DNA of 41,987 nucleotides, from IMG/VR virus record IMGVR_UViG_3300020215_000035, one strand, 5' to 3'. The stretch comes from a virus. Positions 1 to 41,615 of this stretch are shown one piece after another. Position numbers and translations under genes: made by a program. Each line of letters begins with the position of its first letter. Position 1 is the first letter of the stretch. The notes under the pieces are model-generated. The model was not told the DNA's origin. It did not search any database and saw nothing but the letters and a program-made list of their open reading frames with translations.

Positions 1-127
1 CCGCTGGACGGTGGAGGTGTGCGCGCCCGACGGCATCGCCTCGTGGCGCGTCCACCACGGCACGCAGGAAGCCGCCTTCCTCGCCGGCCTCGACGCCGTG
101 CTCGACCACCTCGGCGCCGACGCCGAG
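1..127. repeat. Terminal direct repeat, left copy (identical to 41861-41987); most likely circular-assembly overlap
   Basis: Bases 1-127 match 41861-41987 base for base; an ORF continues across the junction in frame. Confidence 0.95.
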
Positions 128-166
128 GCGATCCCCGGCCCCTTCGACGACGAGGTGCCGTCATGA
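1..166 (+). CDS. 3' end of junction-spanning hypothetical gene (starts at 41616; 1-127 duplicates 41861-41987)
   Basis: Frame 2 continues ...RRWTVEVCAPDGIASWRVHHGTQEAAFLAGLDAVLDHLGADAEAIPGPFDDEVPS to TGA 164-166; ATGA coupling to the next gene. Confidence 0.7.
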   Translation, partial: RWTVEVCAPDGIASWRVHHGTQEAAFLAGLDAVLDHLGADAEAIPGPFDDEVPS

Positions 167-540
167 GCGCGTCCCCGTCCTCGTTCCCCGCCGTCTACCC
201 CCGGGGCGTCCGCGCCCTCGTGTGGCTCGCCCTCCGCGCCCGCCGCGCCTGGGGCTGGGCCCGGGACCCCGGCAAGGCCCAGCTCACCGCCGCCGCCGCC
301 CTCGTCCTCGCCCTGGCGCTCACGCCCGACTTCCTCGACGCCTACGCCAAGGCCGCCGAGCGGCCCGTCCGCGACGCCCACCGCACGGCGGAGCTCGTCG
401 CGCGCCGGGTCCGCCGCGCCCGCCGTCGCCGCACCGACGCCATCCGCCCCGCCGAGCACGGAAGCCTCAGGGCGGCCGAGGACTCCGGTGATTGCTCGGG
501 GGCGGTGGCGGCGCTCGCACCCCCCGCTAGCCCCCGATGA
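163..540 (+). CDS. hypothetical protein, possible membrane segment
   Basis: ATG 163 overlaps the upstream stop (ATGA). Hydrophobic stretch LTAAAALVLALALTP. Ends in ATGA coupling at 537-540. Confidence 0.6.
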   Translation: MSASPSSFPAVYPRGVRALVWLALRARRAWGWARDPGKAQLTAAAALVLALALTPDFLDAYAKAAERPVRDAHRTAELVARRVRRARRRRTDAIRPAEHGSLRAAEDSGDCSGAVAALAPPASPR

Positions 541-1058
541 AACGGCTCCTGACCATCGCGTTCTCCGCGCTCCTCCCCCGCCTCCGGCTCCGGTTCTACG
601 ACCCCTCCGGCGCCGAGGTATCACGCCCCGGCGGAAGGGGGTGGGAGTACCCCTGCTTTTCGTGCGGCGCGCCCTCCGAGACGGGCGGGTACCAGCCCCA
701 CGAGACGCGCCGGAAGGTCGGGGGGTACCGCCGGAGTCTCTGCGCCCGGTGCCACGCCCGGCAACGCCGCTGGCACTGGCTGACGTGGCTGGAGACGGGC
801 GAGCGCGTCGAGGTGCCGGAGGTGCGTGGGGAGGGCTTCATCAGCCCGAGCACGACCTACGCGAGCCACACGTATCCCGTCTACCGCCTGTTCGGGCGGG
901 AGTTCGTCTTCGCCCACGCCGCCCGCCACGGCCGACAGAACAGCCTCAACGCGCGCTTCTGGTTCCGCCGCCTGGGCGTCGAGGGCAACAGCCAGGGCGT
1001 CGAGCGAGCCACGAAAGCACAGGGCAACGTCCTCATCCTCCCCCTCGCCGACGATTGA
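537..1058 (+). CDS. hypothetical protein with CxxC...CxxC zinc-ribbon-like motif
   Basis: 173-aa ORF of varied composition; CFSCG ... CARCH cysteine pairs. Confidence 0.65.
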   Translation: MKRLLTIAFSALLPRLRLRFYDPSGAEVSRPGGRGWEYPCFSCGAPSETGGYQPHETRRKVGGYRRSLCARCHARQRRWHWLTWLETGERVEVPEVRGEGFISPSTTYASHTYPVYRLFGREFVFAHAARHGRQNSLNARFWFRRLGVEGNSQGVERATKAQGNVLILPLADD

Positions 1059-1201
1059 CCGCCCGCCGCGCCGCTCAGCCCGGGGGGGGGCGGCGGGCGG
1101 GGGCGAGCCCCCCGAGTCCAGCGAACCCCGTTCTTTGAGAGTCTGTAACCCCGCCCGTACCTTCCGAGTCGGGCTGAGGCGCCCGGCCCGGTAAGGCTAG
1201 C

Positions 1202-1213
1202 TGTGATGCGGAC
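1202..1213. repeat. Left copy of the 12-bp inverted repeat TGTGATGCGGAC flanking the first XRE gene
   Basis: Perfect reverse complement of 1648-1659 (GTCCGCATCACA). Confidence 0.9.
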
Positions 1214-1279
1214 ACATCGCGGTAGGCCCCGGCCGGGTTGCCTCGCCCACCTTCGGTAAGGGCACCGGGGAAGAAGGGC

Positions 1280-1543
1280 TCAGGCGCCCGCCTCCCCTTC
1301 TCGCCCCGGCAGGCCGCCGTGCTTCTCGATGATGTCGAGGAGGATCTCGACGGCCCCGCTCGGCTCCATCTTCCCCTTCTCCAGATCGCTGACGCTCTGG
1401 TATCGGGTGTAGCCGAGCATCCGGCCGAACTCCGATTGGTTGAGGCGGAGCCGCTTGCGGAGCGCGTGGATGCGCTCGGGTGTCCAGGCCATGAACGCGC
1501 CGAAGGTGCGGGGAAGGGCCGGATAAGCTACGGCGGCTGACAT
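1280..1543 (-). CDS. XRE-family helix-turn-helix transcriptional regulator (small Cro/CI-type)
   Basis: LRLNQSEFGRMLGYTRYQSVSDLEKGK is a typical HTH_XRE core. Opposite strand to the flanking operons. Start may be the internal MAWTPE. Confidence 0.85.
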   Translation of the reverse strand: MSAAVAYPALPRTFGAFMAWTPERIHALRKRLRLNQSEFGRMLGYTRYQSVSDLEKGKMEPSGAVEILLDIIEKHGGLPGREGEAGA

Positions 1544-1588
1544 GCGGGGTTACGGCGAGCGGAAAGAGTCTGTCGCCCTCTACACGCT

Positions 1589-1630
1589 CACCGGAAAAAA
1601 AGTTGCGTCCACCGGAAACTGTTTGTCCGC
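1589..1630. promoter_or_regulatory. Two direct repeats CACCGGAAA(N2-4)GTT(T)G in the divergent control region (candidate operators)
   Basis: caccggaaaaaaagttgcgtcc followed by caccggaaactgtttgtccgc. The core CCGGAAAC equals one iteron variant at 7393-7401. Confidence 0.4.
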
Positions 1631-1636
1631 TTAGCG

Positions 1637-1659
1637 TATATTCCCCCGTCCGCATCACA
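1637..1659 (+). promoter_or_regulatory. TATATT -10-like box, then after 5 nt the right copy of the 12-bp inverted repeat
   Basis: TATATT at 1637-1642 and GTCCGCATCACA at 1648-1659, with ATG at 1677. No convincing -35 was found. Confidence 0.45.
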
Positions 1660-1676
1660 CACCAAGCCTTACTGCC

Positions 1677-2003
1677 ATGCCTACCGAGTCCCCGGTTCAG
1701 AGCCCTTCGGCTCCCGCCGCCGTTGCGACGCACTCGCTCGATCTTCGCGCCCGCTACCCGCTTCGGCTAGGCTGCACCCTCATCCGGCATAGGATGATCG
1801 GCATTCACGCCGTCGTCAACGCGCGTGCGGGGCAGCAGCACCTGAACGATCAGGGCATCGAGGAAATCGAGATGTGGCGAGACGCCCGAGCGATCCGCCG
1901 CCGTGTCTCAGATCGCATCGTGCTGCACGGGTTCACGTCCCGCTTCTTCCGCCGGCACAACGCCCGGTTCGCTCACCTGATCACCGAACGGGAAGAGTGG
2001 TAG
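1677..2003 (+). CDS. hypothetical protein
   Basis: 108-aa ORF and first gene after the control region. CTGCCATGCC start context shared with 5150 and 11509. Confidence 0.7.
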   Translation: MPTESPVQSPSAPAAVATHSLDLRARYPLRLGCTLIRHRMIGIHAVVNARAGQQHLNDQGIEEIEMWRDARAIRRRVSDRIVLHGFTSRFFRRHNARFAHLITEREEW

Positions 2004-2088
2004 CCCCCTCCGCCGTTTCGCCTCCCCCGGCCGCCCCCGCCCCGTAAGGCGGCGGCGCGGCCCCCTCCCCAAGCCTCCGGCTACCCCG

Positions 2089-2394
2089 ATGCCTACTCCC
2101 GTTCAGTCCCCGGTCGAGCCCGTCGCGGCTCCCGCCCACAGCCCCGCGCCGTGGAAGCGGATCGACCCCGATGGGCGCTCCGTCGTCGGGTTGGGCTACC
2201 GCATCCGCACGGCGGACGGGTCGCAGATCGTCGCCGAGCAGCGGTGTGATGTGCCCCTGATCGAAGCGGCCCCTGACCTCCTCCGTGCCGTGGAAAAGCT
2301 CCTCATGTGGCATGAGGACCCCGAAGCCGACGACCACGCTTGGTCCGTCGCCCGCGATGCGCTCGCCAAGGCCCGTGGGGAGGTGTCCCGATGA
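2089..2394 (+). CDS. hypothetical protein
   Basis: 101-aa ORF, CCGATG start context, stop overlaps the next start. Confidence 0.7.
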   Translation: MPTPVQSPVEPVAAPAHSPAPWKRIDPDGRSVVGLGYRIRTADGSQIVAEQRCDVPLIEAAPDLLRAVEKLLMWHEDPEADDHAWSVARDALAKARGEVSR

Positions 2395-2717
2395 GCCCGG
2401 CTCCCCCTCCCGCCGCCCCGCCCTCGCCGGTCCCCGCCCGTCGCACGGCCTGCGTCATGCTCGCCGCCGCTTCTGGCGACGTGCGCGCGGCTAAGGGCGT
2501 CGTCGGCCGCGCTATCCGCGCCGCCCTCCGCGTGCGCCGCTGGCATGAGGCCCCCCACCACGTCCGCTACATCACGCAGGCGGAGGGCGAGGGCAGCGCG
2601 CCGCGCTTCTGCCTCGACCTCACCGACGACGAGGCAGAGCGGCTGCTAGTCGCCGCCGACCGAGAGGCCCTGGCGGCCGGGTTCTCCGCCGCCCCCATCG
2701 ACTTCTACCACGACTGA
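2391..2717 (+). CDS. hypothetical protein
   Basis: ATGA coupling at 2391-2394; internal start of listed ORF 2340..2717. Confidence 0.6.
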   Translation: MSPAPPPAAPPSPVPARRTACVMLAAASGDVRAAKGVVGRAIRAALRVRRWHEAPHHVRYITQAEGEGSAPRFCLDLTDDEAERLLVAADREALAAGFSAAPIDFYHD

Positions 2718-2735
2718 AGGCCGTAGCCACCTGAG

Positions 2736-2933
2736 ATGCCGTCCCCCCCTGAGCACGCCGAGAAGTTCGATGCCCTCGCCGCTACGGTGGAGAGGAACGC
2801 CGCCCTCCTCTCCCTCATCGAGCGCGCCGCGAGGGAGATCAAGCGAGCGCCCGTGACCTGGGAAGGGAAGGACGACCTCGTTCGGGCGCTCCGCGCCGCG
2901 CTCCCCGAAGACCGCCAGAAGGCACTCCGATGA
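2736..2933 (+). CDS. hypothetical protein
   Basis: 65-aa helical ORF, coupled to the next gene (ATGA at 2930). Confidence 0.6.
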   Translation: MPSPPEHAEKFDALAATVERNAALLSLIERAAREIKRAPVTWEGKDDLVRALRAALPEDRQKALR

Positions 2934-3205
2934 CCCCCTCCCCCTCTCTCCGCCCTCCCGCCGTCCCGCCCGCCCCCGACGCCGGAGGCGTGGCCGAGCA
3001 GGCGGCGGCAGACCACGACCTCCACATGGTCAAGGCCATCCTTGACGGCGTGGACGAATTCGGGAAGGTGCTCCCTCAGGAGTCGGACCTCCCCCCGCAG
3101 GCCCAACGGCTGCAAGACCTCCTCGCTGAGCTTTACGGCCTGCTCGACATGGACTACGCCGACCGGAACGCCGTGCTCGCCCTCTCCACCCCCACCGAGG
3201 GCTGA
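2930..3205 (+). CDS. hypothetical protein
   Basis: 91-aa acidic ORF in the operon context. Confidence 0.6.
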   Translation: MTPSPSLRPPAVPPAPDAGGVAEQAAADHDLHMVKAILDGVDEFGKVLPQESDLPPQAQRLQDLLAELYGLLDMDYADRNAVLALSTPTEG

Positions 3206-3208
3206 CCG

Positions 3209-3451
3209 ATGAACCACTTTCGTGTTCGCGTGGACGTTGACCTCGACGCGGATACCGTCGCCGAGATGCTGGCGTGGTTCCTTTGGGCCGGGCCAGATGA
3301 GACCCCGAGCCTCCGCACAGCGGAGGATTGCAGGCGCGCCTTACGGATTGCGATTCAGAACGCCGCCGCGCGGCACGACTTCGGCCCACCTGAGGAATAC
3401 CGAGAGGCCGTACGTGAGATCGTGAGGCAGCACATGAGGACGAAGCGATGA
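3209..3451 (+). CDS. hypothetical protein
   Basis: 80-aa ORF, CCGATG start context, ATGA coupling at 3448. Confidence 0.65.
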   Translation: MNHFRVRVDVDLDADTVAEMLAWFLWAGPDETPSLRTAEDCRRALRIAIQNAAARHDFGPPEEYREAVREIVRQHMRTKR

Positions 3452-3684
3452 ACGTGTTTGCCCCCGACCGGCTCACGCCGGAGGCCGTCGCCTACATGAT
3501 CGGCCGCGTGCTCGACGACCCCCCCGGCGCCGCCGCCTACCGGGAGGAATTGAGGCCGCGTCTCCGCGTTGTCCACGGCCTCGCCTACTCGACCCTTGAC
3601 CTCTTCGACCCGATCTGGGAGTGGCACCGCCAACAAGGCCGGAGCGCTTGGGAGGCCGTCCGCTTTGAGTTCGGAACCCTATGA
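3448..3684 (+). CDS. hypothetical protein
   Basis: 78-aa ORF, coupled at both ends. Confidence 0.65.
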   Translation: MNVFAPDRLTPEAVAYMIGRVLDDPPGAAAYREELRPRLRVVHGLAYSTLDLFDPIWEWHRQQGRSAWEAVRFEFGTL

Positions 3685-3968
3685 ACGCCCCCCTCCCCTA
3701 CTCCGAACGGGACCGCCTCCGCCGCCTCGAAGCCGAGGAGAACGAGCTGCTCGACGTGGTGACGGACGTGCGGCGGCCGATGGCCGTCCGCGCCGTCGCC
3801 GAGCACCGGCTAGCGGCGCTCCGCCCCACGCTCGACGCCCTCCAGGCCCGCCTCGACGCCGAAGAACGGCGTGCCGAAGAACTCCCCACGCTCGCCGCCT
3901 CCGGTGCCCCGTCCGTCGGGCGTGGCGCGCGGGGGGCGGCGGCCTACGAGGGCGCGGTAGCTACGTGA
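3681..3968 (+). CDS. hypothetical coiled-coil protein
   Basis: 95-aa ORF rich in R/E/L heptad-like sequence; its stop overlaps GTG 3965. Confidence 0.65.
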   Translation: MNAPLPYSERDRLRRLEAEENELLDVVTDVRRPMAVRAVAEHRLAALRPTLDALQARLDAEERRAEELPTLAASGAPSVGRGARGAAAYEGAVAT

Positions 3969-4627
3969 ACGCCGTGACCCCTCCCGCCCATACGAGGCCC
4001 GTGCGCATCCTGATCTCCGGCGGGGCCGACCTCGGCCTCGTCGCCGAGGAGACGGGGTGCCCCACGGGCACGCTCTTGGTGCCGACGTGCAACAACCGGC
4101 GGGTGCGGGAGGGGTACCCGTTCGCCGTGGACAACGGGGCCTTCACCGGGTTCAACCGCGACACGCGCGCGGCGTTCGGGGACATCCTCGCCAAGTCGAG
4201 GCCGCACCGGGAGCGGTGCCTCTTCGTGGCCGTCCCCGACGTGGTGGGGAGCGCGCGGCGGACGCTGGAGTGCTTCGAGGCGTGGCGCCGGAAGCTGAAC
4301 GGGTGGCCCCTCGCGCTCGTCTGCCAGGACGGGCAGGAGCACCTCCCGATCCCGTGGCACCAGATCGAGGCCGTGTTCATCGGCGGCTCCACCGAGTGGA
4401 AGCTGTCGAAGCACGCCGAGCACGTCGTCCGGGCGGCGCAGATCCACGGCAAGCACGTCCACGTCGGCCGGGTCAACACGCCGGGCCGCTTCTCGCACTT
4501 CGAGGCGCTAGGGGTGGACTCCATCGACGGCGGCAACCTCGCGTGGCGCCGTGAGCACCGCCTAGCGATCCGTCGCCGCCACGACGATGCCCCCGCCCTC
4601 TTCGAGCCCGAGCCCCTAGCCGCCTAA
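3965..4627 (+). CDS. minimal TGT-fold protein, DpdA-like DNA/tRNA-guanine transglycosylase candidate
   Basis: GTG start coupled as GTGA. The motif order resembles tRNA-guanine transglycosylases: VDNGAFTGF (cf DSGGFQ), AVPDVV (cf LDEC), CQDGQ (cf QGG), FIGGSTEWK (cf GGLAVGE), HVHVGRV (cf LMGVG), LGVDSIDG (cf GxDMFD). No Zn-binding C-terminal domain. Confidence 0.6.
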   Translation: MNAVTPPAHTRPVRILISGGADLGLVAEETGCPTGTLLVPTCNNRRVREGYPFAVDNGAFTGFNRDTRAAFGDILAKSRPHRERCLFVAVPDVVGSARRTLECFEAWRRKLNGWPLALVCQDGQEHLPIPWHQIEAVFIGGSTEWKLSKHAEHVVRAAQIHGKHVHVGRVNTPGRFSHFEALGVDSIDGGNLAWRREHRLAIRRRHDDAPALFEPEPLAA

Positions 4628-4756
4628 CCCCCTCCGCCTCGTGGGGGCCGGTCGCCCCCGCCGGGCACCCCCCGTAACCCGCCGCGAAGCCCAGTCTGTT
4701 CCTTGACCTGCTGCAGCCTTTAGATTCAGGCAGGGCCGCCCGGCCCCGCTCCGGTT

Positions 4757-4769
4757 GGTTGTAGAGGTA
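4757..4769. repeat. Left copy of the 13-bp inverted repeat GGTTGTAGAGGTA flanking the second XRE gene
   Basis: Perfect reverse complement of 5128-5140 (TACCTCTACAACC). Overlaps the local palindrome GAGGTACCTC. Confidence 0.9.
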
Positions 4770-4804
4770 CCTCCAAACGGTAGGCCGGGGCCGGGTGCGC
4801 CCGC

Positions 4805-5050
4805 CTACTTCTTCTCCGCCTTGCCCTTTCGACGGAGGATGTAGAACGGCCCGGCGACGGTGTAGCCGGTGAACGCCTCGATCATCGCCTTCATCGTCTG
4901 GAAGGCCCCGCGTTCGCCCGCCTCCGCCCGGCTCACCTGGGACTGGAACACGCCCAGCTCGTGAGCGACGGCGACCTGGGAACGGGTGCCGCGCGCTTCC
5001 TTGGCGACGGCGCCCAGCTCCTCGACGGTGTAGGGGGTGTCCGGCTTCAT
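4805..5050 (-). CDS. XRE-family helix-turn-helix transcriptional regulator
   Basis: RSQVAVAHELGVFQSQVSRAEAGER HTH core; 81 aa; opposite strand between two plus-strand operons. Confidence 0.85.
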   Translation of the reverse strand: MKPDTPYTVEELGAVAKEARGTRSQVAVAHELGVFQSQVSRAEAGERGAFQTMKAMIEAFTGYTVAGPFYILRRKGKAEKK

Positions 5051-5093
5051 GGCCGGAAGGTACGGCCTATGAGCGAGAAAGTTGTATGCTCGC

Positions 5094-5122
5094 TTGACTC
5101 ATATGCGCCCGGCGGTTATAAT
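5094..5122 (+). promoter_or_regulatory. Sigma70-consensus-like promoter TTGACT-17 nt-TATAAT
   Basis: TTGACT at 5094-5099, a 17-nt spacer, TATAAT at 5117-5122; 27 nt upstream of ATG 5150. Confidence 0.6.
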
Positions 5123-5127
5123 TCCCC

Positions 5128-5140
5128 TACCTCTACAACC
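5128..5140. repeat. Right copy of the 13-bp inverted repeat, 5 nt after the -10 box
   Basis: TACCTCTACAACC is the reverse complement of 4757-4769. Confidence 0.9.
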
Positions 5141-5149
5141 GACCGTGCC

Positions 5150-5353
5150 ATGCCTACCCCCGTGACCGGCTACGCCGCTCGCTCCATCGCAGAGCTAGAG
5201 CGCACCGTCGAAGAGCTCTGGACCGCCTACGGCAACGCCCGCACCGACGCGGGGGCCGAGTGCATCCGCGAGGAGATCCGCGAAGCGCAGGCCGCGCTCG
5301 ACGCCAAGCGCGCGACGCAGGACGCCTGCACCCTTCCCCGCTTCGCCAACTGA
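5150..5353 (+). CDS. hypothetical protein
   Basis: 67-aa ORF MPTPVTGYAARS... with a GTGCCATGCC start context; internal start of listed ORF 4961..5353. Confidence 0.6.
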   Translation: MPTPVTGYAARSIAELERTVEELWTAYGNARTDAGAECIREEIREAQAALDAKRATQDACTLPRFAN

Positions 5354-5408
5354 GTTTCCACGGTTTCCGCGCTTTCCACGGTTTCCACGCCTTACGAACC
5401 GTGGAAAC
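5354..5408. repeat. Iteron array A: four abutting 9-mers GTTTCCACG-like plus one inverted copy
   Basis: GTTTCCACG GTTTCCGCG CTTTCCACG GTTTCCACG at 5354-5389, a 10-nt spacer, then CGTGGAAAC at 5400-5408. Confidence 0.85.
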
Positions 5409-5463
5409 CGGGCTGCAGCACCACCCATCCGGCGCCCCGTAAGGCGCCCCCTCCTGAGTCCCG

Positions 5464-7341
5464 TTGCCGAGTCCGTCCCCCACCACCCCGCCGCTCAGCG
5501 GCGGATTCGACCCCAACGCCGTCCTTGCCCGCGCCTTGGAGCGGGGGCAGGCCGGTTCCCGAAACGACGCCGCCGTGTGGCTGTCCTGCCAGCTCCGAGA
5601 CAACGGCACCCCGCTAGCCGAAGCGGAGGGGCTGCTGCGCGCGTTCGCCGCCGACGTGGGGACGCCTGAGGGGAAGGGCCGCTACACGAAAGCGGACGCC
5701 CTCGCCACCGTGCGGAGCGTCTACCGCCGGCCCGCGCGTGAGCCGTGGGCCGGGAGCCAGACCGGAGGGGCGAAGCCGGCGAAGCGGCCCCGGAAGCGGT
5801 ACGACCCCACGAAGGTTCCGAAGGTGAACGGGGAGCTAGGCGACGCCGACGCGGCGACGCGGGAGGCCGTCCGATTGCTGCAGATGGACCCCGAGGAGGC
5901 CGCCGCGCACTCCGCTTTCATCCGTAGGGAGGAGGAACGGATCGAGCGCGAGGCCGCCTCGCTCAACCTCGACATCGAGGACGCCCCGCTCTTCCCCCGC
6001 GCCGTCTACGACCTCCTCCCCCCGTCCATCGTCAACGCGGCGGCGCACTACACCGAGCCCCACCAGCCGGACGTGTTCACGGCCGGGCTCCTGCCCGTTC
6101 TCGGGGCGATGCTCCCGAACGTGTGGACGCGGCACCAGCGCCGCTACATCTCCCCCAACACGTACGTCGTCGTGACGGCGGAGACGGGCTCGGGGAAGAA
6201 CGTGCTAGAGGACGTGCGGGCCGTGGCGAGGCCGCTATCGGACGCCCTCGCCCTCCGCCGGGCGGAGGAACTGGCCCGGTGGAAAGACGAGAAGGAGGCG
6301 GCCGAAGCGGCGGCGATGGCCGTCCCCACGGAGCCCCCCCATTACCGCCTCTTCGTCCCGGCCAACGCCTCGGCGACCCCGTTCCTCCGCGCGCTGCAGA
6401 AGAACGAGGGGCGCGGGCTCGTGTTCGAGACGGAGATATACCCGCTGACCCAGGCGAGGGGGAACGAGTGGGGCGACTACACCGCGACGCTCCTGCAGGC
6501 GTACGGCCACGAGACGGTGAGCCTCCTCCGTAGCCAGGAGGAGTTCTACATCCCGAACCCCTGCGTCTCCGTCACCCTCTCCGGCACGCCGGATCAAGTC
6601 CTCCGCCTCATCCCCTCCGTCGAGGACGGGCTGTTCTCGCGGTTCGGGTTCTTCTACTTCGTCGGGACCGACGAATGGATAGACCACGGCCCGGCCGCCG
6701 GCTTCGACGACTTCAACGCCACGCTCTCCATCTTCGGGGAGATGATGGCCCGGGCGTACCACACGCTGCACGGCCGGCCCGAACGGCTCTTCGTTGACAT
6801 CTCCCCGGACGGGTGGGCCACGCTGCAGGAACCGTTCCGGCAGATGAAGGCGCGGGCCATCGCCAACGGGCAGCGCCCCCTCATCTCGGCCGTACACCGG
6901 GGGCCGATCATGGCCGCCCGGTTCGCCATGTGCCTCACGCTCCTCTCCCACATCGAGGAGGGGCGCGACCTCACGCCCACCGTTCGGAGCGTCGAGGTAC
7001 GGGAGAAGGCGGTATGGGCCGGCTCCATGATCGCCGCCACGCTGGTTGACCACGCTTTCCGCCTCGCCCAGCACCTCCCGAAAGCGCAGGCCCTCAAGAC
7101 GGCATACAGCCGGGACGTGCTTACCCGGTTCGCCCTCGCCCTGCCGGATCGGTTCGACCACCAGGCCCTCCTCTCGACGGCGACGGCGCTGGAGCTCAAG
7201 CAGAGCGCCGCCTACAAGTACCGCGCGAAGCTGCTGCAGCTCGGGTGGGCGGAGCCGGACGGCTACGGGTGGTGCAAGAAATCGCCCCGCTGCCCTTCGC
7301 CCTCGTCCATTGGTACACATGGTATTGAACATGATGACTAG
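5464..7341 (+). CDS. PriCT-like N-terminal domain plus DUF3987-type P-loop protein (replication initiator/helicase-like)
   Basis: TTG start. N-terminus GSRNDAAVWLSCQLRDNGTPLAEAEGLL...TVRSVYRR resembles primase C-terminal (PriCT) domains. Walker A-like VTAETGSGKN and Walker B-like GLVFETE. Flanked by iterons. Confidence 0.75.
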   Translation: MPSPSPTTPPLSGGFDPNAVLARALERGQAGSRNDAAVWLSCQLRDNGTPLAEAEGLLRAFAADVGTPEGKGRYTKADALATVRSVYRRPAREPWAGSQTGGAKPAKRPRKRYDPTKVPKVNGELGDADAATREAVRLLQMDPEEAAAHSAFIRREEERIEREAASLNLDIEDAPLFPRAVYDLLPPSIVNAAAHYTEPHQPDVFTAGLLPVLGAMLPNVWTRHQRRYISPNTYVVVTAETGSGKNVLEDVRAVARPLSDALALRRAEELARWKDEKEAAEAAAMAVPTEPPHYRLFVPANASATPFLRALQKNEGRGLVFETEIYPLTQARGNEWGDYTATLLQAYGHETVSLLRSQEEFYIPNPCVSVTLSGTPDQVLRLIPSVEDGLFSRFGFFYFVGTDEWIDHGPAAGFDDFNATLSIFGEMMARAYHTLHGRPERLFVDISPDGWATLQEPFRQMKARAIANGQRPLISAVHRGPIMAARFAMCLTLLSHIEEGRDLTPTVRSVEVREKAVWAGSMIAATLVDHAFRLAQHLPKAQALKTAYSRDVLTRFALALPDRFDHQALLSTATALELKQSAAYKYRAKLLQLGWAEPDGYGWCKKSPRCPSPSSIGTHGIEHDD

Positions 7342-7696
7342 GACCGAGCCCGGCACTTTCCACGGTTTACACGGCGTGGAAACTGTGGAAACCCCGGAAA
7401 CCGTGGAAACTGGCACCCCCCTAGCCACGAAGGGAGGCCGCCCGTTCACGCTCTACCTCTTCGGAGACGACGGGAGCGTGTTCGGGCTCGAACCCACGTC
7501 GTACGAGGGGCAGCCGGCCTACGGGATCGTCGCCCTCCGCTACTCGCTCGAGGTGGAGGTGTGCGGGAAGCTCCAGCGGGTGGACCTCGCCGGTTCCTTC
7601 GGGATCATCGAGCCGGACACCGTTCGGCGGGAGTACCTCGCCAAAGGGTTCCGGGTCGTGAGGGGCCATGCCATAACGGAGGCGGCCCATGCGTAG
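7334..7696 (+). CDS. hypothetical protein (start uncertain: ATG 7319/7331/7334 or in-frame GTG 7403 after the iterons)
   Basis: The C-terminal 95 aa look like coding sequence. The N-terminal part would translate the iteron array (FHGLHGVETVETPETVETG). Confidence 0.5.
   Translation: MTRTEPGTFHGLHGVETVETPETVETGTPLATKGGRPFTLYLFGDDGSVFGLEPTSYEGQPAYGIVALRYSLEVEVCGKLQRVDLAGSFGIIEPDTVRREYLAKGFRVVRGHAITEAAHA
7356..7410. repeat. Iteron array B: two forward and four abutting inverted 9-mers
   Basis: CTTTCCACG GTTTACACG at 7356-7373; CGTGGAAAC TGTGGAAAC CCCGGAAAC CGTGGAAAC at 7375-7410. Confidence 0.85.
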
Positions 7697-8123
7697 CCCC
7701 GAGCACCACGAGCAGGTCGCCGTCGTCAACTGGGCGCGGTTCATGGCCGACACCGGGCGCCTCCCCGAGCTGGCCCTCCTCTACGCGGTCCCGAACGGGG
7801 GCCACCGGGAGAAGGCGACGGCCGGGCGGCTGAAAGCCGAAGGCACCCGGCGCGGCGTCCCGGACCTCTGCCTCCCCGTCCCCCGCCTCACCGTGGAAGG
7901 CGGCTACCTCGCCGGCCTCTACGTCGAGATGAAGGCGCCGGGCGGGTCCACGTCGCCGGAGCAACGGGCGTGGATCGCCGCGCTCGGCTCGCTCGGATAC
8001 CGCGCCGTCGTCTGCCGTGGGGCGGACGCCGCGAAGGCCGAGATCGAATCCTACCTCGCCCTCCCCCGCGTCGCCCCGCTCACCGTGGGAGATACCGTCC
8101 TCTTAGCCGCGCTCCCTCGATGA
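7689..8123 (+). CDS. VRR-NUC domain nuclease
   Basis: GVPDLCL ... LYVEMKAPGGSTSPEQRAWIAALGSLGY matches the D...ExK plus Q..W pattern of VRR-NUC proteins. Confidence 0.85.
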   Translation: MRSPEHHEQVAVVNWARFMADTGRLPELALLYAVPNGGHREKATAGRLKAEGTRRGVPDLCLPVPRLTVEGGYLAGLYVEMKAPGGSTSPEQRAWIAALGSLGYRAVVCRGADAAKAEIESYLALPRVAPLTVGDTVLLAALPR

Positions 8124-8377
8124 AGGTCAAGCACATGGCCCCGGACCAGCTCGCCAAGCTCCGCAAGAACCGGAGCGAGAAGGCCGCGCCGCTCCCGCCG
8201 CTCCGCGTGGTGGATCACCGCGCCCTCGCCGGCCTGCCGGAACCGCCCCGCGAACACGTCGAGCCCTGCCCGACGATGCAGCACCGGAATCAGTACCTCA
8301 CCGCGCTCCGTCGCTCCGTCCACGCGAACGGGGGCCGCGTCTCCGCTGACAAGGAAGGCACGATCCACGTCCGCTAA
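8120..8377 (+). CDS. hypothetical protein
   Basis: ATGA coupling at 8120; 85 aa. Confidence 0.55.
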   Translation: MKVKHMAPDQLAKLRKNRSEKAAPLPPLRVVDHRALAGLPEPPREHVEPCPTMQHRNQYLTALRRSVHANGGRVSADKEGTIHVR

Positions 8378-8386
8378 CGGCTCCCC

Positions 8387-8896
8387 ATGTACGCGCTCGT
8401 CCACAGCTCCACCCCGTCCCGCCCCGTCCGCCTCCTCTCCGGCGAGATGGTCTCCCCCTACGCCCGCACCCTCGTGCATAGGTTCATGCGGATGACGGGG
8501 TGGACGGCGCACGAGGTGGAGCGGCGGGGCTTCCGCGTCCGCTACGAACCGAACGCCTCGCGCATGTCCCCCTCGCTCTCGGCCGTCCTCGACGCCCTCA
8601 CGCCGGAGGCGTTGCCGCCGGCCCCGTTCCAGCTCGGCCCCGGCGAGACCGTGCGCGACGTGGCCCGCTTGCTCGCCGGCCTCCGCGCCGACCTCGACGG
8701 GGGGCCGCGGCAGCGGGAAGCCGCTCACCGCCGGCTCCGCAAGCTGCTTGACCTCGCCGGTTCCGCCCCGGGCGCTGGCCCGGGCGCCGCCGCCTCCGGG
8801 GGCGCGGCGGACGGCACGCACGACCCCCCTCTCGCTGTGAGCCCCGCAGGCGCACGCGAGCCCGAACCCGGCCCGGATAGCGGCCGGGCGATTTGA
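8387..8896 (+). CDS. hypothetical protein
   Basis: 169-aa ORF with no recognised domain. Confidence 0.6.
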   Translation: MYALVHSSTPSRPVRLLSGEMVSPYARTLVHRFMRMTGWTAHEVERRGFRVRYEPNASRMSPSLSAVLDALTPEALPPAPFQLGPGETVRDVARLLAGLRADLDGGPRQREAAHRRLRKLLDLAGSAPGAGPGAAASGGAADGTHDPPLAVSPAGAREPEPGPDSGRAI

Positions 8897-8939
8897 GCGC
8901 CTTCTAACGCTGTTCCCGGCTCCCACAGAGCCCATCCCG

Positions 8940-9239
8940 ATGCCTACAGAGAAAGCCCCTGCCGCGCTCGCCCTCGTGTTCGTCCCGATCAAACCGGACG
9001 GCACGCTCCCCCGCCTGCCGAGAGGAGCGGAAGTCGTTGACCCCTCACTCGCCAAGGACGTGGCGTACCTCATCGGGTACGCCGAGGGGTCGTGCGGGCA
9101 CATCCGGCTCCCGCCCCCGCGCGGCGAGTGGGGATGGGTATCCACCATCGAAGAGCCGGAGCCCGTCGTGCGGGCGAACCGCGTCCGCGAAGGGCTCCGA
9201 ATCAACCTCGGTGTCGCCGCCGGCGGCCCCGCCGCCTAG
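8940..9239 (+). CDS. hypothetical protein
   Basis: 99-aa ORF with a CCGATGCC start context. Confidence 0.6.
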   Translation: MPTEKAPAALALVFVPIKPDGTLPRLPRGAEVVDPSLAKDVAYLIGYAEGSCGHIRLPPPRGEWGWVSTIEEPEPVVRANRVREGLRINLGVAAGGPAA

Positions 9240-9253
9240 CCCCCCGAGAACCG

Positions 9254-9457
9254 ATGAACGCACCCCCCGACCCCACCCCCCTCTCGGGTGACGACCTCGC
9301 GCGGCTGATCGACGTCGCGCTGGAGGAGGCCGAGCGCGAGAAGCCCCTGTGGGACGCGCTCGACGCCGCCGTAGACGCCCACGGCGCCGAGGCCGTACGC
9401 CACGCGCTCCTGAGGCTCGCCGCCGACGGGGCCCCCTCCGCCCGCCGCGCCGCCTAG
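9254..9457 (+). CDS. hypothetical protein
   Basis: 67-aa acidic helical ORF, CCGATG context; internal start of listed ORF 9092..9457. Confidence 0.55.
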   Translation: MNAPPDPTPLSGDDLARLIDVALEEAEREKPLWDALDAAVDAHGAEAVRHALLRLAADGAPSARRAA

Positions 9458-9460
9458 CCC

Positions 9461-9475
9461 GTAGGGCTGCCCTAC
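9461..9475. promoter_or_regulatory. 15-bp palindrome GTAGGGC-T-GCCCTAC just upstream of the integrase (terminator hairpin or attP-core candidate)
   Basis: 7-bp arms around a single central base, inside the 45-bp gap 9458-9502. Confidence 0.35.
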
Positions 9476-9502
9476 ATTCCGGCTCCACCCCTCCCGCTGC
9501 CC

Positions 9503-11158
9503 ATGCCCCCGCCGCTCCCCGTCGCTCAACTGTTGAGGGTGTCCACCGAAGGGCAGGCCGACCGCCTCGGGCTCCCGGCGCAGGAGACGGCGAACGGAGA
9601 GACGTGCCGCCGCTACGGGCTGGAGATCGTGGACACCGTGCGGATCGTGATGAGCGGCGCTGACGTGGCGACCTCACCGGGGATGGAGCAACTGCTTTCG
9701 TTGGTGGAATCGGGGCGAGCAAAGGGGATCGTCGTAGCGGCGTACGACCGGCTGTTCCGCCCCGAACGGTGGAGCGACCTGATAGTCCTCCAGCGGCTCC
9801 ACGATGCCGGGGCCGGCATCTGGACGCCGACGGGGCAGATAGACTTGACGACGGAGACGGGGCACATCCAGGCGACGCTCTACAACCTCTTCGCGGCGAT
9901 GGAGCGGCGGCGCATCCGGGAGCGCATGGCCGCCGGGCGCGAGGAGAAGCGGAAGCGCGGCGACCACTGCGGGTTCAAGCACTCCATCCCGCTAGGGCTT
10001 GACTGGACAGAGGAAACTGGGTGGAGCTACACGCCGGAGATCGCCCGGGTGGCCGAGTGCTTCCGCCTCTTCCTCTCCGGCGAACGTTCCCCCGAAGCCA
10101 TCGGCGCCCGCGTCGGGCTCGGGCGCACGACGGTGCGGTACGTCCTCCAGAACGAGGCTTATACCGGCTGGCGCGTCTACGACGAGAAGCGCGGGGCGGA
10201 GAAGCTCCCGTGCGGCGACCGCCGGAAGGTGAAGCGGGCCGAAGGCGAAGTGCTCCGCGTCCGCCTCCGCGACGCCTCGGGCACCCCGCTCCCGCCCGTC
10301 GTCAGCGAAGAGGACTTCGCCGCCATCCAGCACCACCTCGAACAAGGGCGGCTCCGGAGCGCGCGGGCGAACGCGGAGACGGAAGGGCACTTCGTCTACC
10401 GGGGCGTCCTCTACTGCGCCGTGCCCGGCCCCGAAGGGGACCCCTGCGGGTGCGCGTTCTACCACTCGGCCGGGGCACGGTACACGAGCGGCCCGCGCCG
10501 CGGCGAGCGGAAGCGGTTCTACCACTGCCGCACGATCAACCCCCGCTACGGCCCGCCGTGCGGGAACCCCTACCTCTCCGAACACCTCCTCGACCCCGTG
10601 CTCGACGCCGCCCTCGCCGGGAGCCTCACCGACCGGGCGTTGCTCCGCCGCGCTCTAGAACGCTTCCAGACGCGCGCGGGCGCCGAGGCGGTGTCTACCC
10701 CGGCCTTCGACGCCGCCGCGCTCCTCGCGCGCCTGGAAGAGCGTAGGGGCCGTGTGCTGGATGCGTTCGTGGACGGCGCCCTCACGCGGGAGGAACGGGA
10801 CGCGCGGCTCGCCCGCCTCGACGGCGAGCGCGACCGCCTCCTCGCCCTCGGCCCCGTCGCCCCGTCGCCCGTTCCGGCGGCCCGTCTTAGCGCTTCGGAC
10901 GTGCTCGCCGTGGTGCGGGTGTTCCGGCGGTTCCACCGCCGCAGCTACGAAGCGAAGCGGGCCGCGCTGGAGGCCGTGCGGCCCCGGCTGTTCGTGGACC
11001 GCTACGCCGTCCGGGGCGTCTGGCTCGACGGCAGGCTCTTCGGTGCAACGGAAGCCTCCGCCGGTCGTAACTCGGGCAACCTACTTCAAACGGTTGACGC
11101 TTTCGCTACCGCTCCGGGGCTCCCCCGGGGCGGGTTATACATCCCCCTCGCCGCCTAG
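9503..11158 (+). CDS. int: large serine recombinase (integrase)
   Basis: Resolvase catalytic N-terminus LLRVSTEGQ ... YDRLFR ... ERRRIRERM, recombinase domain, Cys-rich zinc-ribbon region (YCAV...CGC...HCR...CGNP) and a C-terminal coiled coil. Confidence 0.95.
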   Translation: MPPPLPVAQLLRVSTEGQADRLGLPAQETANGETCRRYGLEIVDTVRIVMSGADVATSPGMEQLLSLVESGRAKGIVVAAYDRLFRPERWSDLIVLQRLHDAGAGIWTPTGQIDLTTETGHIQATLYNLFAAMERRRIRERMAAGREEKRKRGDHCGFKHSIPLGLDWTEETGWSYTPEIARVAECFRLFLSGERSPEAIGARVGLGRTTVRYVLQNEAYTGWRVYDEKRGAEKLPCGDRRKVKRAEGEVLRVRLRDASGTPLPPVVSEEDFAAIQHHLEQGRLRSARANAETEGHFVYRGVLYCAVPGPEGDPCGCAFYHSAGARYTSGPRRGERKRFYHCRTINPRYGPPCGNPYLSEHLLDPVLDAALAGSLTDRALLRRALERFQTRAGAEAVSTPAFDAAALLARLEERRGRVLDAFVDGALTREERDARLARLDGERDRLLALGPVAPSPVPAARLSASDVLAVVRVFRRFHRRSYEAKRAALEAVRPRLFVDRYAVRGVWLDGRLFGATEASAGRNSGNLLQTVDAFATAPGLPRGGLYIPLAA

Positions 11159-11162
11159 AACC

Positions 11163-11438
11163 ATGTCCCGCCTCCGCATCATCGCCCTCGAAGCCGAGGG
11201 CACCGACGACGACGTGAACGCCGCCCTCCGCGGCCTCGTGGACGGCCTCACCGGCCCCACCCGCGTCACGCTCAACAGCCCTTACGGCTACCTCCGGGCA
11301 CCCGGCGGGGGCCGCATCCCGAACGGCACCGGGGGCGACGTGGAGGGGGCGTTCGACCCGGCTTCCTCCGCCGCCGTCCTCTTCGACGGCGAGCGCACGC
11401 CCGTCAAGGTGCCCGGCTTCTGGCTCGCCCTCGCCTGA
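11163..11438 (+). CDS. hypothetical protein
   Basis: 91-aa ORF starting 4 nt after the int stop; internal start of listed ORF 10752..11438. Confidence 0.55.
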   Translation: MSRLRIIALEAEGTDDDVNAALRGLVDGLTGPTRVTLNSPYGYLRAPGGGRIPNGTGGDVEGAFDPASSAAVLFDGERTPVKVPGFWLALA

Positions 11439-11461
11439 GCGCGGGGCGCCCCCCTCCCCAC

Positions 11462-11478
11462 GTCGGCCGAAGGCCGGC
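11462..11478 (+). terminator. short GC hairpin with GAA loop after the int operon
   Basis: gtcggcc-gaa-ggccggc, a 7-bp stem including one G-U pair; no U-tract. Confidence 0.3.
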
Positions 11479-11508
11479 GACCTACGCCCAATCAACCCCC
11501 CTACTGCC

Positions 11509-11931
11509 ATGCCTGCCGAGACCGAGACCAAGCGCACCGCGCTCACGCCCGTTGACTGCTGCGTCTGCGGCATCTCGTTCGGGCTCCCGAAGCACTACGC
11601 CGACGCCCGCCAGGAGGACCACCGCACGTTCTACTGCCCCAACGGGCACAACCTCGCATGGAGCCACCAGAGCGAAGCGGAGAAGGCGAAAGCCGAGGCC
11701 GAACGGCTCCGGGGTGAACTCGCCGCCGCGCGTCAGGACGCGAAGTATCAGCGGGAGCGCCGGGAGGCGGAGCAACGGCGAGTGATCGCGTTCAAGGGTC
11801 AGCTTACGCGAGTGAAGAAGCGCGTGGCCGCCGGGGTGTGCCCATGCTGCCACCGGACGTTCCAGAACCTCGCCGCCCACATGAAGGGGCAACACCCCTC
11901 CTACGCCGCCGACGCACAGACTTCCTCTTGA
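11509..11931 (+). CDS. zinc-finger / coiled-coil protein
   Basis: CCVCG...CPNGH near the N-terminus, a central KAEAERLRGEL... coiled coil, and C-terminal CPCCHRTFQNLAAHMKGQH (C2H2-like). Confidence 0.7.
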   Translation: MPAETETKRTALTPVDCCVCGISFGLPKHYADARQEDHRTFYCPNGHNLAWSHQSEAEKAKAEAERLRGELAAARQDAKYQRERREAEQRRVIAFKGQLTRVKKRVAAGVCPCCHRTFQNLAAHMKGQHPSYAADAQTSS

Positions 11932-11977
11932 CGGGTCTGCGCCGGCCCCCGCGCACGCCCACACCCCCAACCCTGCC

Positions 11978-12274
11978 ATGTACCCTGAGCCCGAAGACCT
12001 CGAACGCATCCGCACCTGGGGGCCCGGCGAGCACGGCGACTTCCCCGGCCTCATGGACTTCATCCGCTCCCTGTGGCACTTCGCGGACGCGGGGTACTTC
12101 ACCCAGGAGGGCGAGGCGTTCCACCTGTCCACGGCCGGGTGGAGCGGGAACGAGGACATCATCGAAGCCCTGGAAGCCAACGGGGTGTTCTGGATGACGT
12201 GCTGGCAACGCTCCGAGCGCGGCGGGCACTACCGCTTCACCGTGAAGCCGTGGCCGAAGCCGGCCCGGGTCTAG
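11978..12274 (+). CDS. hypothetical protein
   Basis: 98-aa ORF of varied composition (W/F/H rich); last gene of the plus-strand arm. Confidence 0.7.
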   Translation: MYPEPEDLERIRTWGPGEHGDFPGLMDFIRSLWHFADAGYFTQEGEAFHLSTAGWSGNEDIIEALEANGVFWMTCWQRSERGGHYRFTVKPWPKPARV

Positions 12275-12339
12275 TAGCCGGTCCCCGGGGCCCGCCTGGG
12301 GGCCGCGCACCCCCCGCGGGGAGCGGGGCTCCGGCGCGG
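12275..12339. terminator. Convergent-operon junction with nested GC hairpins (candidate bidirectional terminator)
   Basis: Outer GTAGCCG (12275-81) pairs with CGGCTAC (12337-43). Inner hairpins GGCCC-N6-GGGCC and CCCGC-GGGGA-GCGGG. No U-tracts. Confidence 0.35.
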
Positions 12340-22986: not shown

Positions 22987-23442
22987 TTAGCGCCCCCGCA
23001 CGGCTAGCTCGAGGTGGCGCCCGACGGCGCGGGCGAGGACGTGCTCGGCGCGCATCTCCTCGGCGACGGGGAGGAAGTGCGGGCGCGGGGCCATCCGGCG
23101 GGTGCCGTACTCCAGCATCGGCCCGCGCCGGTCGTTCGTCCGCACCACCCCCTCGGGGATGGGGTCGCCGACCCCGGAGAGGTCCACGTGGATCGAGGCC
23201 CGGTAGGAGCCCGTATCCACGGCCGGCGGCTGCCCCGGCGCGCTCGCCTGGTGCGTGACCCCGCCGCGGCGGTAGACGCTGCCCGTCCCGGGCTGGCTCA
23301 CCTTCTCGATGAGCTTGCCGTGGGCGACGACGGTGGTCTCGGCCACGCCGGCAGATGCCGCCTCGCGCACCTCGGACTCCGCGAGCCGCTCTAGCCAGCG
23401 GTCCGCCTCCTTGAAGCCTTCCAGGGTCACGGTGAACGCCAT
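22987..23442 (-). CDS. HK97 gp10-family head-tail adaptor
   Basis: SQPGTGSVYRRGGVTHQASAPGQPPAVDTGSYRASI and LEYGT...RPHF resemble the gp10 family. Confidence 0.8.
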   Translation of the reverse strand: MAFTVTLEGFKEADRWLERLAESEVREAASAGVAETTVVAHGKLIEKVSQPGTGSVYRRGGVTHQASAPGQPPAVDTGSYRASIHVDLSGVGDPIPEGVVRTNDRRGPMLEYGTRRMAPRPHFLPVAEEMRAEHVLARAVGRHLELAVRGR

Positions 23443-23777
23443 TACGCGGCCCCCTCGGGCGCCCCGTCGGGCGGCTCTTCGGGGTCGTCCACGGCCTTCT
23501 CGGCGCCCCGCAGGGCGTCGGCCCGGTCCCGGTCCGTGACGACGAAGCGGTCGCCGGCGCGGACGCGGTGGGCGCTCGCGTGGCCGGGGTCGATCTCCCG
23601 GCCCGGGATCGGGCGCACCGCCCGCATCCGCACCCGGTACGCCGGCTCCTCGCCGCCGGGAGCCCCATGCTCGGGAGCCCCATGCTCGGGAGCCCCATGC
23701 TCGGGAGCCCCATGCTCCGGGGCAACGGGCTCGGGGGCCTTCGCCTTTCGGGGGGTGGTCTTCTTAGCGTTTGCCAT
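23442..23777 (-). CDS. hypothetical protein with four tandem EHGAP pentapeptides
   Basis: 111 aa: Lys-rich N-terminus, (APEHG)x4, acidic Pro-rich C-terminus; TAATG coupling to the next gene. Confidence 0.6.
   Translation of the reverse strand: MANAKKTTPRKAKAPEPVAPEHGAPEHGAPEHGAPEHGAPGGEEPAYRVRMRAVRPIPGREIDPGHASAHRVRAGDRFVVTDRDRADALRGAEKAVDDPEEPPDGAPEGAA
23658..23717. repeat. Perfect 15-bp tandem repeat x4 (GGGAGCCCCATGCTC)
   Basis: Four identical abutting units, in frame within 23442..23777. Confidence 0.95.
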
Positions 23778-39078: not shown

Positions 39079-39132
39079 TACGGATGCCCTACGGGGGCGG
39101 GGTAAGGGGGGAGGGCCGGGGTGGCGCCGGGG

Positions 39133-39192
39133 GAAAGTGCGATTGCGGTTGCGAAAGTGCTTGCGTTCGCAGGTTCGCAGCCGTAAGTTGCG
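39133..39192. promoter_or_regulatory. operator-like repeats between the repressor and the early operon
   Basis: GAAAGTGC at 39133 and 39153 (20-bp phasing). TTGCG at 39143, 39149, 39161 and 39188. Tandem GTTCGCAG x2 at 39165-39180. Confidence 0.45.
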
Positions 39193-39217
39193 TCACCACT
39201 GGCAAAGATAGCCCCTG

Positions 39218-40179: not shown

Positions 40180-40229
40180 CGATGCCGCCGGCCCCCCGCC
40201 CCGCCCCCACGCGCTAACCCCCTCCTGCC

Positions 40230-40682: not shown

Positions 40683-40763
40683 GTGTCCCCCCGGGCACGC
40701 GCCGCGGGGGCCGGGCGGCGTACGCCCGCGCTCCCCGACGCGGCCCACGAACCGAGAACGCCG

Positions 40764-40868: not shown

Positions 40869-40909
40869 TATCCCGCCGCTTGCCGCGGCCCCCCTCAACC
40901 CGAACGCCG

Positions 40910-41355: not shown

Positions 41356-41361
41356 ACGCCG

Positions 41362-41538: not shown

Positions 41539-41543
41539 AACGC

Positions 41544-41582: not shown

Positions 41583-41615
41583 AGAACTCGGACTCACTAG
41601 CCGCAAAGATACCCC

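Follow-up and report, generated by a model that had tools for sequence, protein, structure and literature searches.

What is the function of short abutting repeats that stand on both sides of a replication gene? This question is raised by the IMG/VR virus record IMGVR_UViG_3300020215_000035, a stretch of 41,987 nucleotides (nt) that was analysed at its full length and is called the window in the following. The window belongs to an uncultured, high-GC temperate tailed phage, and in it the gene for a PriCT/DUF3987 helicase, a putative replication initiator, is enclosed by two mirror-image arrays, A and B, of 9-bp units. The arrays are very probably a real and selected feature, namely the iteron set of a helicase-initiator origin, and the 9-mers are probably origin iterons bound by the phage's own PriCT/DUF3987 protein, a predicted MCM-related hexameric helicase. 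The helicase is favoured as the reader of the 9-mers, among other reasons because no other candidate reader travels with the arrays.

Two mirror-image arrays of abutting 9-mers

An imperfect inverted repeat with arms of 55 nt brackets the helicase gene (5353-5407 and 7357-7411; 87% complementary; arms 1949 nt apart), and both arms are built alike: a run of four abutting 9-mers is separated by 10 nt from a single 9-mer that points the opposite way (Table 1). The units follow the consensus [G/C]TTTCC[A/G]C[G/A] with TTTCC kept in every unit except one, and Tandem Repeats Finder (TRF) describes each array as a period-9 repeat of four copies. Array A ends 55 nt before the start codon TTG 5464, and 14 nt separate the stop codon TAG 7339-7341 from array B. 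The coordinates and sequences of all units had been given correctly to the base in the initial annotation of this DNA, which also counted two forward units in array B. Their sequences stand, but the second of them, GTTTACACG, aligns together with the following G with the 10-nt spacer of array A and is the degenerate counterpart of that spacer. With at most one mismatch GTTTCCACG occurs at 17 sites in the window versus 7.8 ± 2.7 in shuffled sequences, none of 100 shuffles reaching 17, and 10 of the 17 sites fall within the two arrays; the 9-mer pattern exceeds chance.

Is the DNA of the arrays conserved? Word-indexed protein searches with the initiator returned only L001 (50% identity), L002 (30%) and a few matches at about 29%, tblastn against phages found four unannotated faecal contigs at 22-34% identity, and scans of IMG/VR with the initiator protein and with alignment A1 gave no relatives. 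L001 is a 5.1-kb contig of 73% GC and carries the identical 9-mer on both flanks of its initiator gene with the order of units kept: six forward units without an opposed unit upstream, and downstream a forward unit and, 10 nt further on, four inverted units. In an alignment of all four arrays of the window and L001 the units match one to one, down to the G at position 7 of unit 2, and the inverted run of array B is identical to L001 4231-4266 at 35 of 36 positions. Since this run is near-identical while the initiators share only 50% of their residues, the comparison points to strong purifying selection on the array DNA itself. The arrays, the helicase and a small downstream open reading frame (ORF) are all that the two loci have in common over the L001 contig.

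A wider survey covered 160 loci (L236-L395) with genes for relatives of 24-31% identity; their sources are for the most part Bacteroidota genomes and metagenomes. A tandem array lies within 300 nt after the stop codon in 92 of the 160, with period 9 in 55 loci and period 8 in 33 and with a median gap of 5 nt between stop codon and array. TRF rows of period 6-13 and at least 2.8 copies within 400 nt of the ORF number 88 downstream versus 2 upstream. In the loci that were inspected a run of three or four abutting units is followed, across a spacer, by units of opposite orientation; the median over 76 distinct loci is three units one way and one opposed, and the spacer is 7-98 nt long and slightly AT-enriched in the 13 loci that have at least two units each way and a measurable spacer. 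The sequence of the unit varies by lineage (TTAAGGAT, TCCGACAAC, TTGCAGAGT, GTGGCAAA and others). Over these loci the downstream unit is not enriched upstream of the gene, an upstream copy being seen only in the window and L001, and none of the 160 has a homologue of the window's small upstream and downstream ORFs. Judged by these sequences, abutting 8-9-bp repeats directly after the gene appear to be a trait of the DUF3987 family with the helicase gene as their sole constant partner, and the inverted second copy upstream appears to be what is unusual within the family. No description of 8-9-bp arrays after DUF3987 genes was found in the part of the DUF3987 literature that was surveyed.

Table 1. 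Features of the initiator locus and its surroundings; positions are those of the window, except in the last row, where they are those of the surveyed loci
Feature	Position	Strand or orientation	Remarks
Array A, run of four abutting 9-mers GTTTCCACG GTTTCCGCG CTTTCCACG GTTTCCACG	5354-5389	+ (forward)	pattern [G/C]TTTCC[A/G]CG
Array A, 10-nt spacer CCTTACGAAC	5390-5399
Array A, opposed unit CGTGGAAAC	5400-5408	inverted	ends the 55-nt left arm
PriCT/DUF3987 helicase-initiator gene	5464-7341	+	625 aa from TTG 5464
C-terminal domain of the initiator, about residues 545-612	7096-7299	+	predicted winged helix-turn-helix, proposed iteron reader
AT-rich tract, candidate DNA-unwinding element	7308-7347		last codons and stop of the initiator gene
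Array B, proximal unit CTTTCCACG	7356-7364	forward
Array B, 10 nt after the proximal unit, GTTTACACGG	7365-7374		GTTTACACG (7365-7373) and one G
Array B, run of four abutting 9-mers CGTGGAAAC TGTGGAAAC CCCGGAAAC CGTGGAAAC	7375-7410	- (inverted)	right arm
Sigma-70-like promoter, TTGACT-17-TATAAT	5094-5122	+	11 of 12 consensus matches; one site versus 0.1 expected
Small upstream ORF, about 67-68 aa	5147-5353	+	no family match; TGA stop abuts array A
Small downstream ORF	7319-7696	+	38% identity over 121 aa with an L001 ORF; start uncertain
Large serine integrase, 551 aa	9503-11158		kind used by phages for integration; about 2 kb downstream of the helicase gene
Arrays of surveyed relatives (examples)	L325 4344-4495; L256 4380-4505; L320 3936-3989; L366 4592-4661

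The helicase-initiator and related replication systems

What kind of protein is encoded between the arrays? The product of 5464-7341 matches DUF3987 (PF13148) with an E-value of 2.7e-41 (142 bits versus a cutoff of 27), whereas its match to PriCT_1 stays below the Pfam cutoff (18.2 versus 21.1 bits, E 0.0019); of the PriCT/DUF3987 assignment in the initial annotation the DUF3987 part is thus firm and the PriCT part subthreshold. Among 55 sequences the Walker A residues G244-K245 and E324 are invariant, and E322-T323-E324 is invariant or nearly so. TTG 5536 is an alternative start codon and may be the true one, because the N-terminus of the L001 homologue agrees with it. For DUF3987 proteins a winged helix-turn-helix (wHTH) at the C-terminus and a relationship of the family to MCM have been reported (PMC4889955), and a PriCT-DUF3987 protein of a Bacteroidota island is an oligomeric 5'-3' helicase of three domains that partners with PrimPol (PMC11724360). 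The aligned C-terminal domains of the window's relatives match mostly MCM_C and also other wHTH families of Pfam. The full-length AlphaFold2 (AF2) model of the window's protein, which was built from three sequences, has three helices and a hairpin at residues 544-603, with a predicted local distance difference test score (pLDDT) of about 54-72 there. A Foldseek search of this model against PDB returned nearly exclusively MCM subunits at E > 0.03, a likeness that is not significant but suggestive. Searches of PDB with the full-length protein, by sequence and by profile, found nothing, the Rep structures of Staphylococcus aureus pathogenicity islands (SaPIs) included. A stretch of the C-terminal domain that could be involved in recognition, SAAYKYRxK...GYGWCKK, is the same in the window and L001 and differs in L002, whose repeats differ too. 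Upstream of its DUF3987 gene (983-1047) L002 has GTGTTCACC and GGTGAAC repeats, which have the core of TGTTCACC, the type-1 iteron of phage P4, and downstream (3055-3175) a different inverted repeat, TGCAGAAAGTGC.

In classical iteron origins such as those of pSC101, F, P1, RK2 and R6K the repeats lie beside the initiator gene together with an AT-rich unwinding region. Their iterons are 17-22 bp long and phased at about one helical turn, the Rep protein is not a helicase and needs DnaA, DnaB and DnaC of the host, and extra iteron clusters serve autoregulation or copy control. The window departs from this scheme by its abutting 9-bp units and by an initiator that would itself be the helicase. 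The Reps of SaPIs are self-loading hexameric helicases with a C-terminal winged helix that recognises short iterons, and the SaPI origin consists of 6-12 iterons immediately 3' of the rep ORF, with an AT-rich centre and at least two iterons on each side of it that point opposite ways (PMC9371898). Array B and the arrays of the 92 relatives likewise lie directly 3' of the helicase ORF, as does the downstream array of L001, and contain opposed units. However, SaPI Reps are 3'-5' helicases of families other than DUF3987 (PMC9371898), whereas the ATPase here is a DUF3987 protein related to MCM (superfamily 6, SF6), and 5'-3' polarity has been reported for AgaPH of Bacteroidota mobile elements (PMC11724360). 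Unlike in SaPIs, the units are 9 bp long and truly abutting, four units oppose one across 10 nt that are not AT-rich, with the AT-rich tract beside the module, and a second complete and inverted module lies upstream of the gene.

For the bracketing of the initiator gene phage P4 offers the parallel. In its record the alpha operon is preceded by the origin, ori, with six copies of TGTTCACC, and crr begins about 46 nt after the stop of alpha and contains ten 8-bp TGTTCACC repeats, which point both ways and include two pairs at a 9-bp period (NC_001609). The alpha protein combines a helicase with a C-terminal winged-helix DNA-binding domain (PDB 1KA8, cited in PMC2777425). As in the window, two separated clusters of one short iteron thus bracket the initiator gene, one just 3' of it and one upstream. 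Unlike in the window, alpha is a DnaG-type primase fused to a superfamily 3 (SF3) helicase, 4.5 kb separate ori from crr, the stretch from ori to alpha holds five further genes, and the two clusters are not mirror images; in the window's initiator no primase domain was detected, its only match to a PHROG 'DNA primase' having an E-value of 0.005. Flensburg and Calendar in 1987 and Ziegelin et al. in 1993 are said to have found that P4 needs both ori and crr in cis. Among the surveyed DUF3987 relatives L339 has its array in two direct copies (4405-4440 and 4645-4685) about 240 nt apart, an arrangement reminiscent of P4 crr with its two direct repeats of 120 bp, and its GTTTCCTCA-like units are close to the unit of the window.

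AgaPH belongs to the same family as the window's protein and has a matching plan of three domains (PMC11724360): PriCT, for which the window's protein has a subthreshold match, an ATPase of the DUF3987 type and a small domain at the C-terminus. The Bacteroidota relatives that were retrieved have abutting 8-9-bp arrays directly after the gene. AgaPH works with the product of an adjacent PrimPol gene, whereas no PrimPol gene was found in the window, and unlike the window the Bacteroidota elements are without an upstream array. The AgaPH paper makes no mention of iterons, and at least three of its four uses of 'origin' do not concern a replication origin (PMC11724360). Both the abutting short units and the bracketing of an initiator have precedents, in SaPIs and P4; new are the two mirror-image copies of one full module tight around the gene and the other helicase family. 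The initial annotation had proposed an iteron origin of a layout it did not recognise. The proposal is borne out in so far as the sites are conserved, selected and tied to the DUF3987 gene, but the layout is not without model: spacer-less 8-9-bp units are the norm of the family (92 of 160 loci) and mirror the SaPI origin (PMC9371898), and for opposed arrays around an initiator the bracket of P4 ori and crr is the precedent (NC_001609).

A candidate origin and its alternatives

How could the two modules act? We infer binding of the 9-mers by the helicase, melting at 7308-7347 and a function of module A, each in its own right. The C-terminal winged-helix domain of the initiator would read the 9-mers, and each 55-bp module would serve as a loading pad. 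Module B and the AT-rich tract would form the origin proper, in the position usual for the family, 14 nt after the stop codon; there the initiator would bind, melt the adjacent low-GC DNA and load itself, whereupon the host, or an unrecognised phage primase recruited via the PriCT domain, would supply priming and synthesis. Module A, the second copy in inverted orientation, lies between a candidate promoter and the gene, 55-127 nt ahead of the latter; it could be a second cis element and work together with B on the model of crr and ori in P4, either by looping or by loading a second hexamer in opposite orientation. Alternatively or in addition, it could be an operator that limits transcription of the initiator itself.

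The tract at 7308-7347 has the lowest GC content of all 40-nt windows in the 42 kb (42% versus 72%) and stops 8 nt short of array B. In the last 12 codons of the initiator gene the GC content at third codon positions is 0.25 versus 0.91 gene-wide, which is the lowest value among the 5029 windows of nine long genes, and the codons there are of types with frequencies of 1-10%; the tail of the protein that they encode is not conserved with L001. By its composition the tract looks like an unwinding element that is written into the 3' end of the gene. The same tract is also a candidate downstream promoter.

On the other side of the gene a promoter-like site at 5094-5122, where the GC content is among the lowest of the genome, stands between a minus-strand gene for a helix-turn-helix (HTH) protein (4805-5050) and the ORF 5147-5353, and points to array A and the helicase gene. 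It is a candidate promoter for an operon whose transcription would pass array A on its way to the helicase gene and, since it lies upstream of the small ORF and of array A, transcripts of the initiator gene would carry array A in their leader. As a variant of the above, it could be imagined that the same initiator binds both arrays but that only module B is an origin and module A purely an autoregulatory operator or roadblock in the leader, a tangible possibility even if not the one that we expect. Iteron-binding initiators of plasmids autorepress at repeats in their own promoters; module A lies between the promoter-like site and the start of the gene, only module B adjoins the AT-rich tract, and distant relatives presumably replicate with a downstream array alone. 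However, the promoter is a consensus match only, and module A is a full copy of the 55-bp module, opposed unit included, and is conserved no less than B, which a roadblock would not obviously need; the upstream array of L001 keeps six forward units but no opposed unit.

Could the 9-mers be read by something other than the helicase? It is quite unlikely that they are operators, partition sites or similar elements bound by another protein of the phage. The small downstream ORF is the only other gene common to the window and L001, and array B overlaps its 5' end, but it has no homologue beside the arrays of the 160 relatives and no match to a DNA-binding family. The initial annotation had named the three HTH proteins encoded in the window as possible binders; they are not favoured, as no homologues of their genes were found on the 5.1-kb L001 contig, and a scan of the window with at most one mismatch found no 9-mer beside the HTH genes at 4805-5050 (minus strand) or 38524-39478. 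A host factor is very unlikely too. The consensus of the DnaA box is TTATCCACA or TTGTCCACA, and tandem DnaA boxes occur at some plasmid origins, so that the arrays could be clusters that recruit or titrate the host initiator. The 9-mer agrees with either consensus at 6 of 9 positions, including a TCCAC core, and the identical 9-mer is arrayed in the unrelated contigs L024, L119 and L189 of 46-51% GC. These contigs were, however, retrieved by that very pattern and match by construction, positions 1 and 9 are never the consensus T/A save for an A at position 9 in three units, and the arrays that relatives have in the same position are unlike DnaA boxes and vary between lineages of one phylum; a universal host factor therefore fails to explain them. 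The 55-nt inverted repeats as ends of a mobile or invertible helicase cassette, that is, recombination sites instead of an origin, are scarcely credible. They enclose a single gene and are 87% complementary, and a serine recombinase gene lies 2 kb downstream, but the repeats are made of tandem 9-mers as in the single downstream arrays of the 92 relatives, no transposase was found, a target-site duplication is not apparent, the 551-aa recombinase belongs to the large serine integrases with which phages integrate, and the orientation is identical in L001 and in three assemblies. Hardly more to be expected is that array B simply encodes four (V/P/A)-E-T repeats with which the protein of the downstream ORF would begin, array A being a chance or decayed copy. 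As the initial annotation had correctly stated, array B is in frame with the ATG starts of the next ORF (7319, 7331 and 7334) and would read FHGLHGVETVETPETVETG. The V-E-T frame is open and alike in the window and L001, both of which have an ATG overlapping the helicase stop, gene callers include array B, and in the unrelated contig L215 GTGGAAACC repeats encode VET repeats. Against this, array A is as well conserved as B and yet non-coding on the forward strand, right after a stop codon; the 35 of 36 nucleotides shared with L001 face 38% protein identity in the rest of the ORF; and the codons of array B, if it is translated, are extremely atypical for the genome (ACT, 1.5% of Thr, three times; TTA, 0.6%; GGT, 2.9%; GAA, 19%, four times). 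As this codon usage shows, the sequence of array B is dictated by a constraint at the DNA level, whether translated or not.

Several results weigh against the 9-mers being origin iterons read by the helicase. The window's own C-terminal domain has no direct match in Pfam; in PDB, sequence and profile searches with it gave weak HTH and wHTH matches but no direct one; both AF2 models are poor, with a pLDDT of 56 for the full-length protein and 46 for the C-terminal domain alone; and hhalign compared the domain with the C-terminus of P4 alpha at a probability of 0.5%, that is, no similarity. L001 is the only informative close relative in the collections searched, the other assemblies being 100% identical to the window over the stretches compared. 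Beside its array B it has no AT-rich tract, its arrays themselves being among its lowest-GC segments, so that the unwinding element is deduced from one genome. Many of the 160 relatives are closely related to one another (about 82 distinct proteins in the 92 array loci, and about 52 clusters), and the counts are therefore not independent. The initial annotation had suggested an alignment of related phages to see whether 9-mer and initiator co-vary: L001 does keep the 9-mer on both sides, but among the relatives co-variation between C-terminal domain and iteron is weak and inconsistent, and it is absent in pairs with helicase regions more than 60% identical. PriCT domains are usually found alongside a primase, and no primase or DNA polymerase was recognised in the window, the early ORFs included. 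Finally, the cumulative GC skew of the window, proposed earlier as a means to locate the origin, tracks gene orientation and marks none.

A more far-reaching version of the origin reading can be formulated, which combines opposed hexamers about 2 kb apart, iterons with a six-fold period and a general rule of 3' origins, and which as a whole is improbable. As two complete opposed modules flank the gene, an MCM-related self-loading helicase could be deposited as two opposed hexamers that establish bidirectional forks, and the opposed modules would then be the bacterial-virus counterpart of the eukaryotic 'quasi-symmetrical' loading of MCM at two inverted ORC sites. Five-sixths of a helical turn are 8.75 bp, near the family-wide period of 8-9 bp, and a six-fold initiator may read successive sites in this way. 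If DUF3987 helicase genes in general have their origin right behind the stop codon, origins would become predictable in thousands of Bacteroidota islands, satellites and phages. Already if the 9-mers are origin iterons, origins of DUF3987 elements could be sought by a sequence rule, abutting 8-9-bp repeats directly after the helicase gene. This class of elements, some of which carry prokaryotic Argonaute (pAgo) defence systems, comprises phages, satellites and Bacteroidota islands, and no description of its origins was found in the literature searched. The symmetric version with two modules would be a convenient system for studying orientation and loading of an MCM-related self-loading helicase of a bacterial virus, and it could help to tell a role in initiation, as for P4 crr, from autoregulation for a second iteron cluster. 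The region of about 5090-7700 would be a minimal candidate replicon for an uncultured high-GC phage lineage without a close cultured relative.

The surrounding genome and similar arrays elsewhere

The start of the small downstream ORF could be one of the three ATG codons, which would translate array B, or GTG 7403, which falls in the last unit of array B; further GTG codons stand at 7376 and 7385. Gene callers choose 7319, and a start at or before GTG 7403 is needed to retain the block conserved with L001. The small upstream ORF is not conserved in L001; in other assemblies of the phage a 67-aa gene is called at its position.

Because of a 127-bp exact direct repeat at its termini (1-127 and 41861-41987) the window of 72% GC is a circular assembly of about 41,860 bp. 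It encodes a portal protein, large terminase, tail proteins, an endolysin, a repressor-like protein and a DNA methyltransferase. The terminase has at most 34% identity to any phage terminase in GenBank, a near-identity DNA search of GenBank phages with the stretch 4800-8200 found no match, and scans for Rfam families and tRNAs found nothing. Two further public assemblies hold the identical phage (DNA 100% identical over the stretches compared), and this phage is also the source of the second protein in the window protein's cluster, whose 100% identical DNA is uninformative. The early region on the plus strand (39218-41987 and 1-12300) encodes a VRR-NUC nuclease in addition to the PriCT/DUF3987 helicase. 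The strongest tandem repeat of the window is found elsewhere, at 23657-23717 inside the minus-strand ORF 23442-23777, where a perfect 15-nt unit, CGGGAGCCCCATGCT, is repeated 4.1 times (TRF score 122).

Scans of IMG/VR with the 9-mer pattern, whose matches agree by construction and were not used as evidence for conservation, returned mostly coding repeats (VET or GNG; L215, L077, L125, L185 and L123) and some origin-like arrays. The contigs L024 (2846-2996), L119 (1652-1770) and L189 (1023-1170) have GTTTCCACG runs together with an AT-rich spacer and a run of a second repeat, which is GAACCCACG-like in L024 and L119 and less regular in L189; in L024 an inverted GTTTCCACG run closes the spacer. 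By their sequence these regions look like an origin. No DUF3987 relative was found on the available stretches of the three contigs, and a PHROG search with the ORFs neighbouring the arrays of L024 and L119 gave no match. In L049 (4130-4330) and L223 (8678-8830) convergent TGTTTCC(G/A)C or TTTCCAC arrays flank an AT-rich spacer directly 3' of genes for VapE-like (Toprim-VapE) primase-helicases, and an equivalent origin layout with a similar iteron core therefore seems to occur in a second helicase family.

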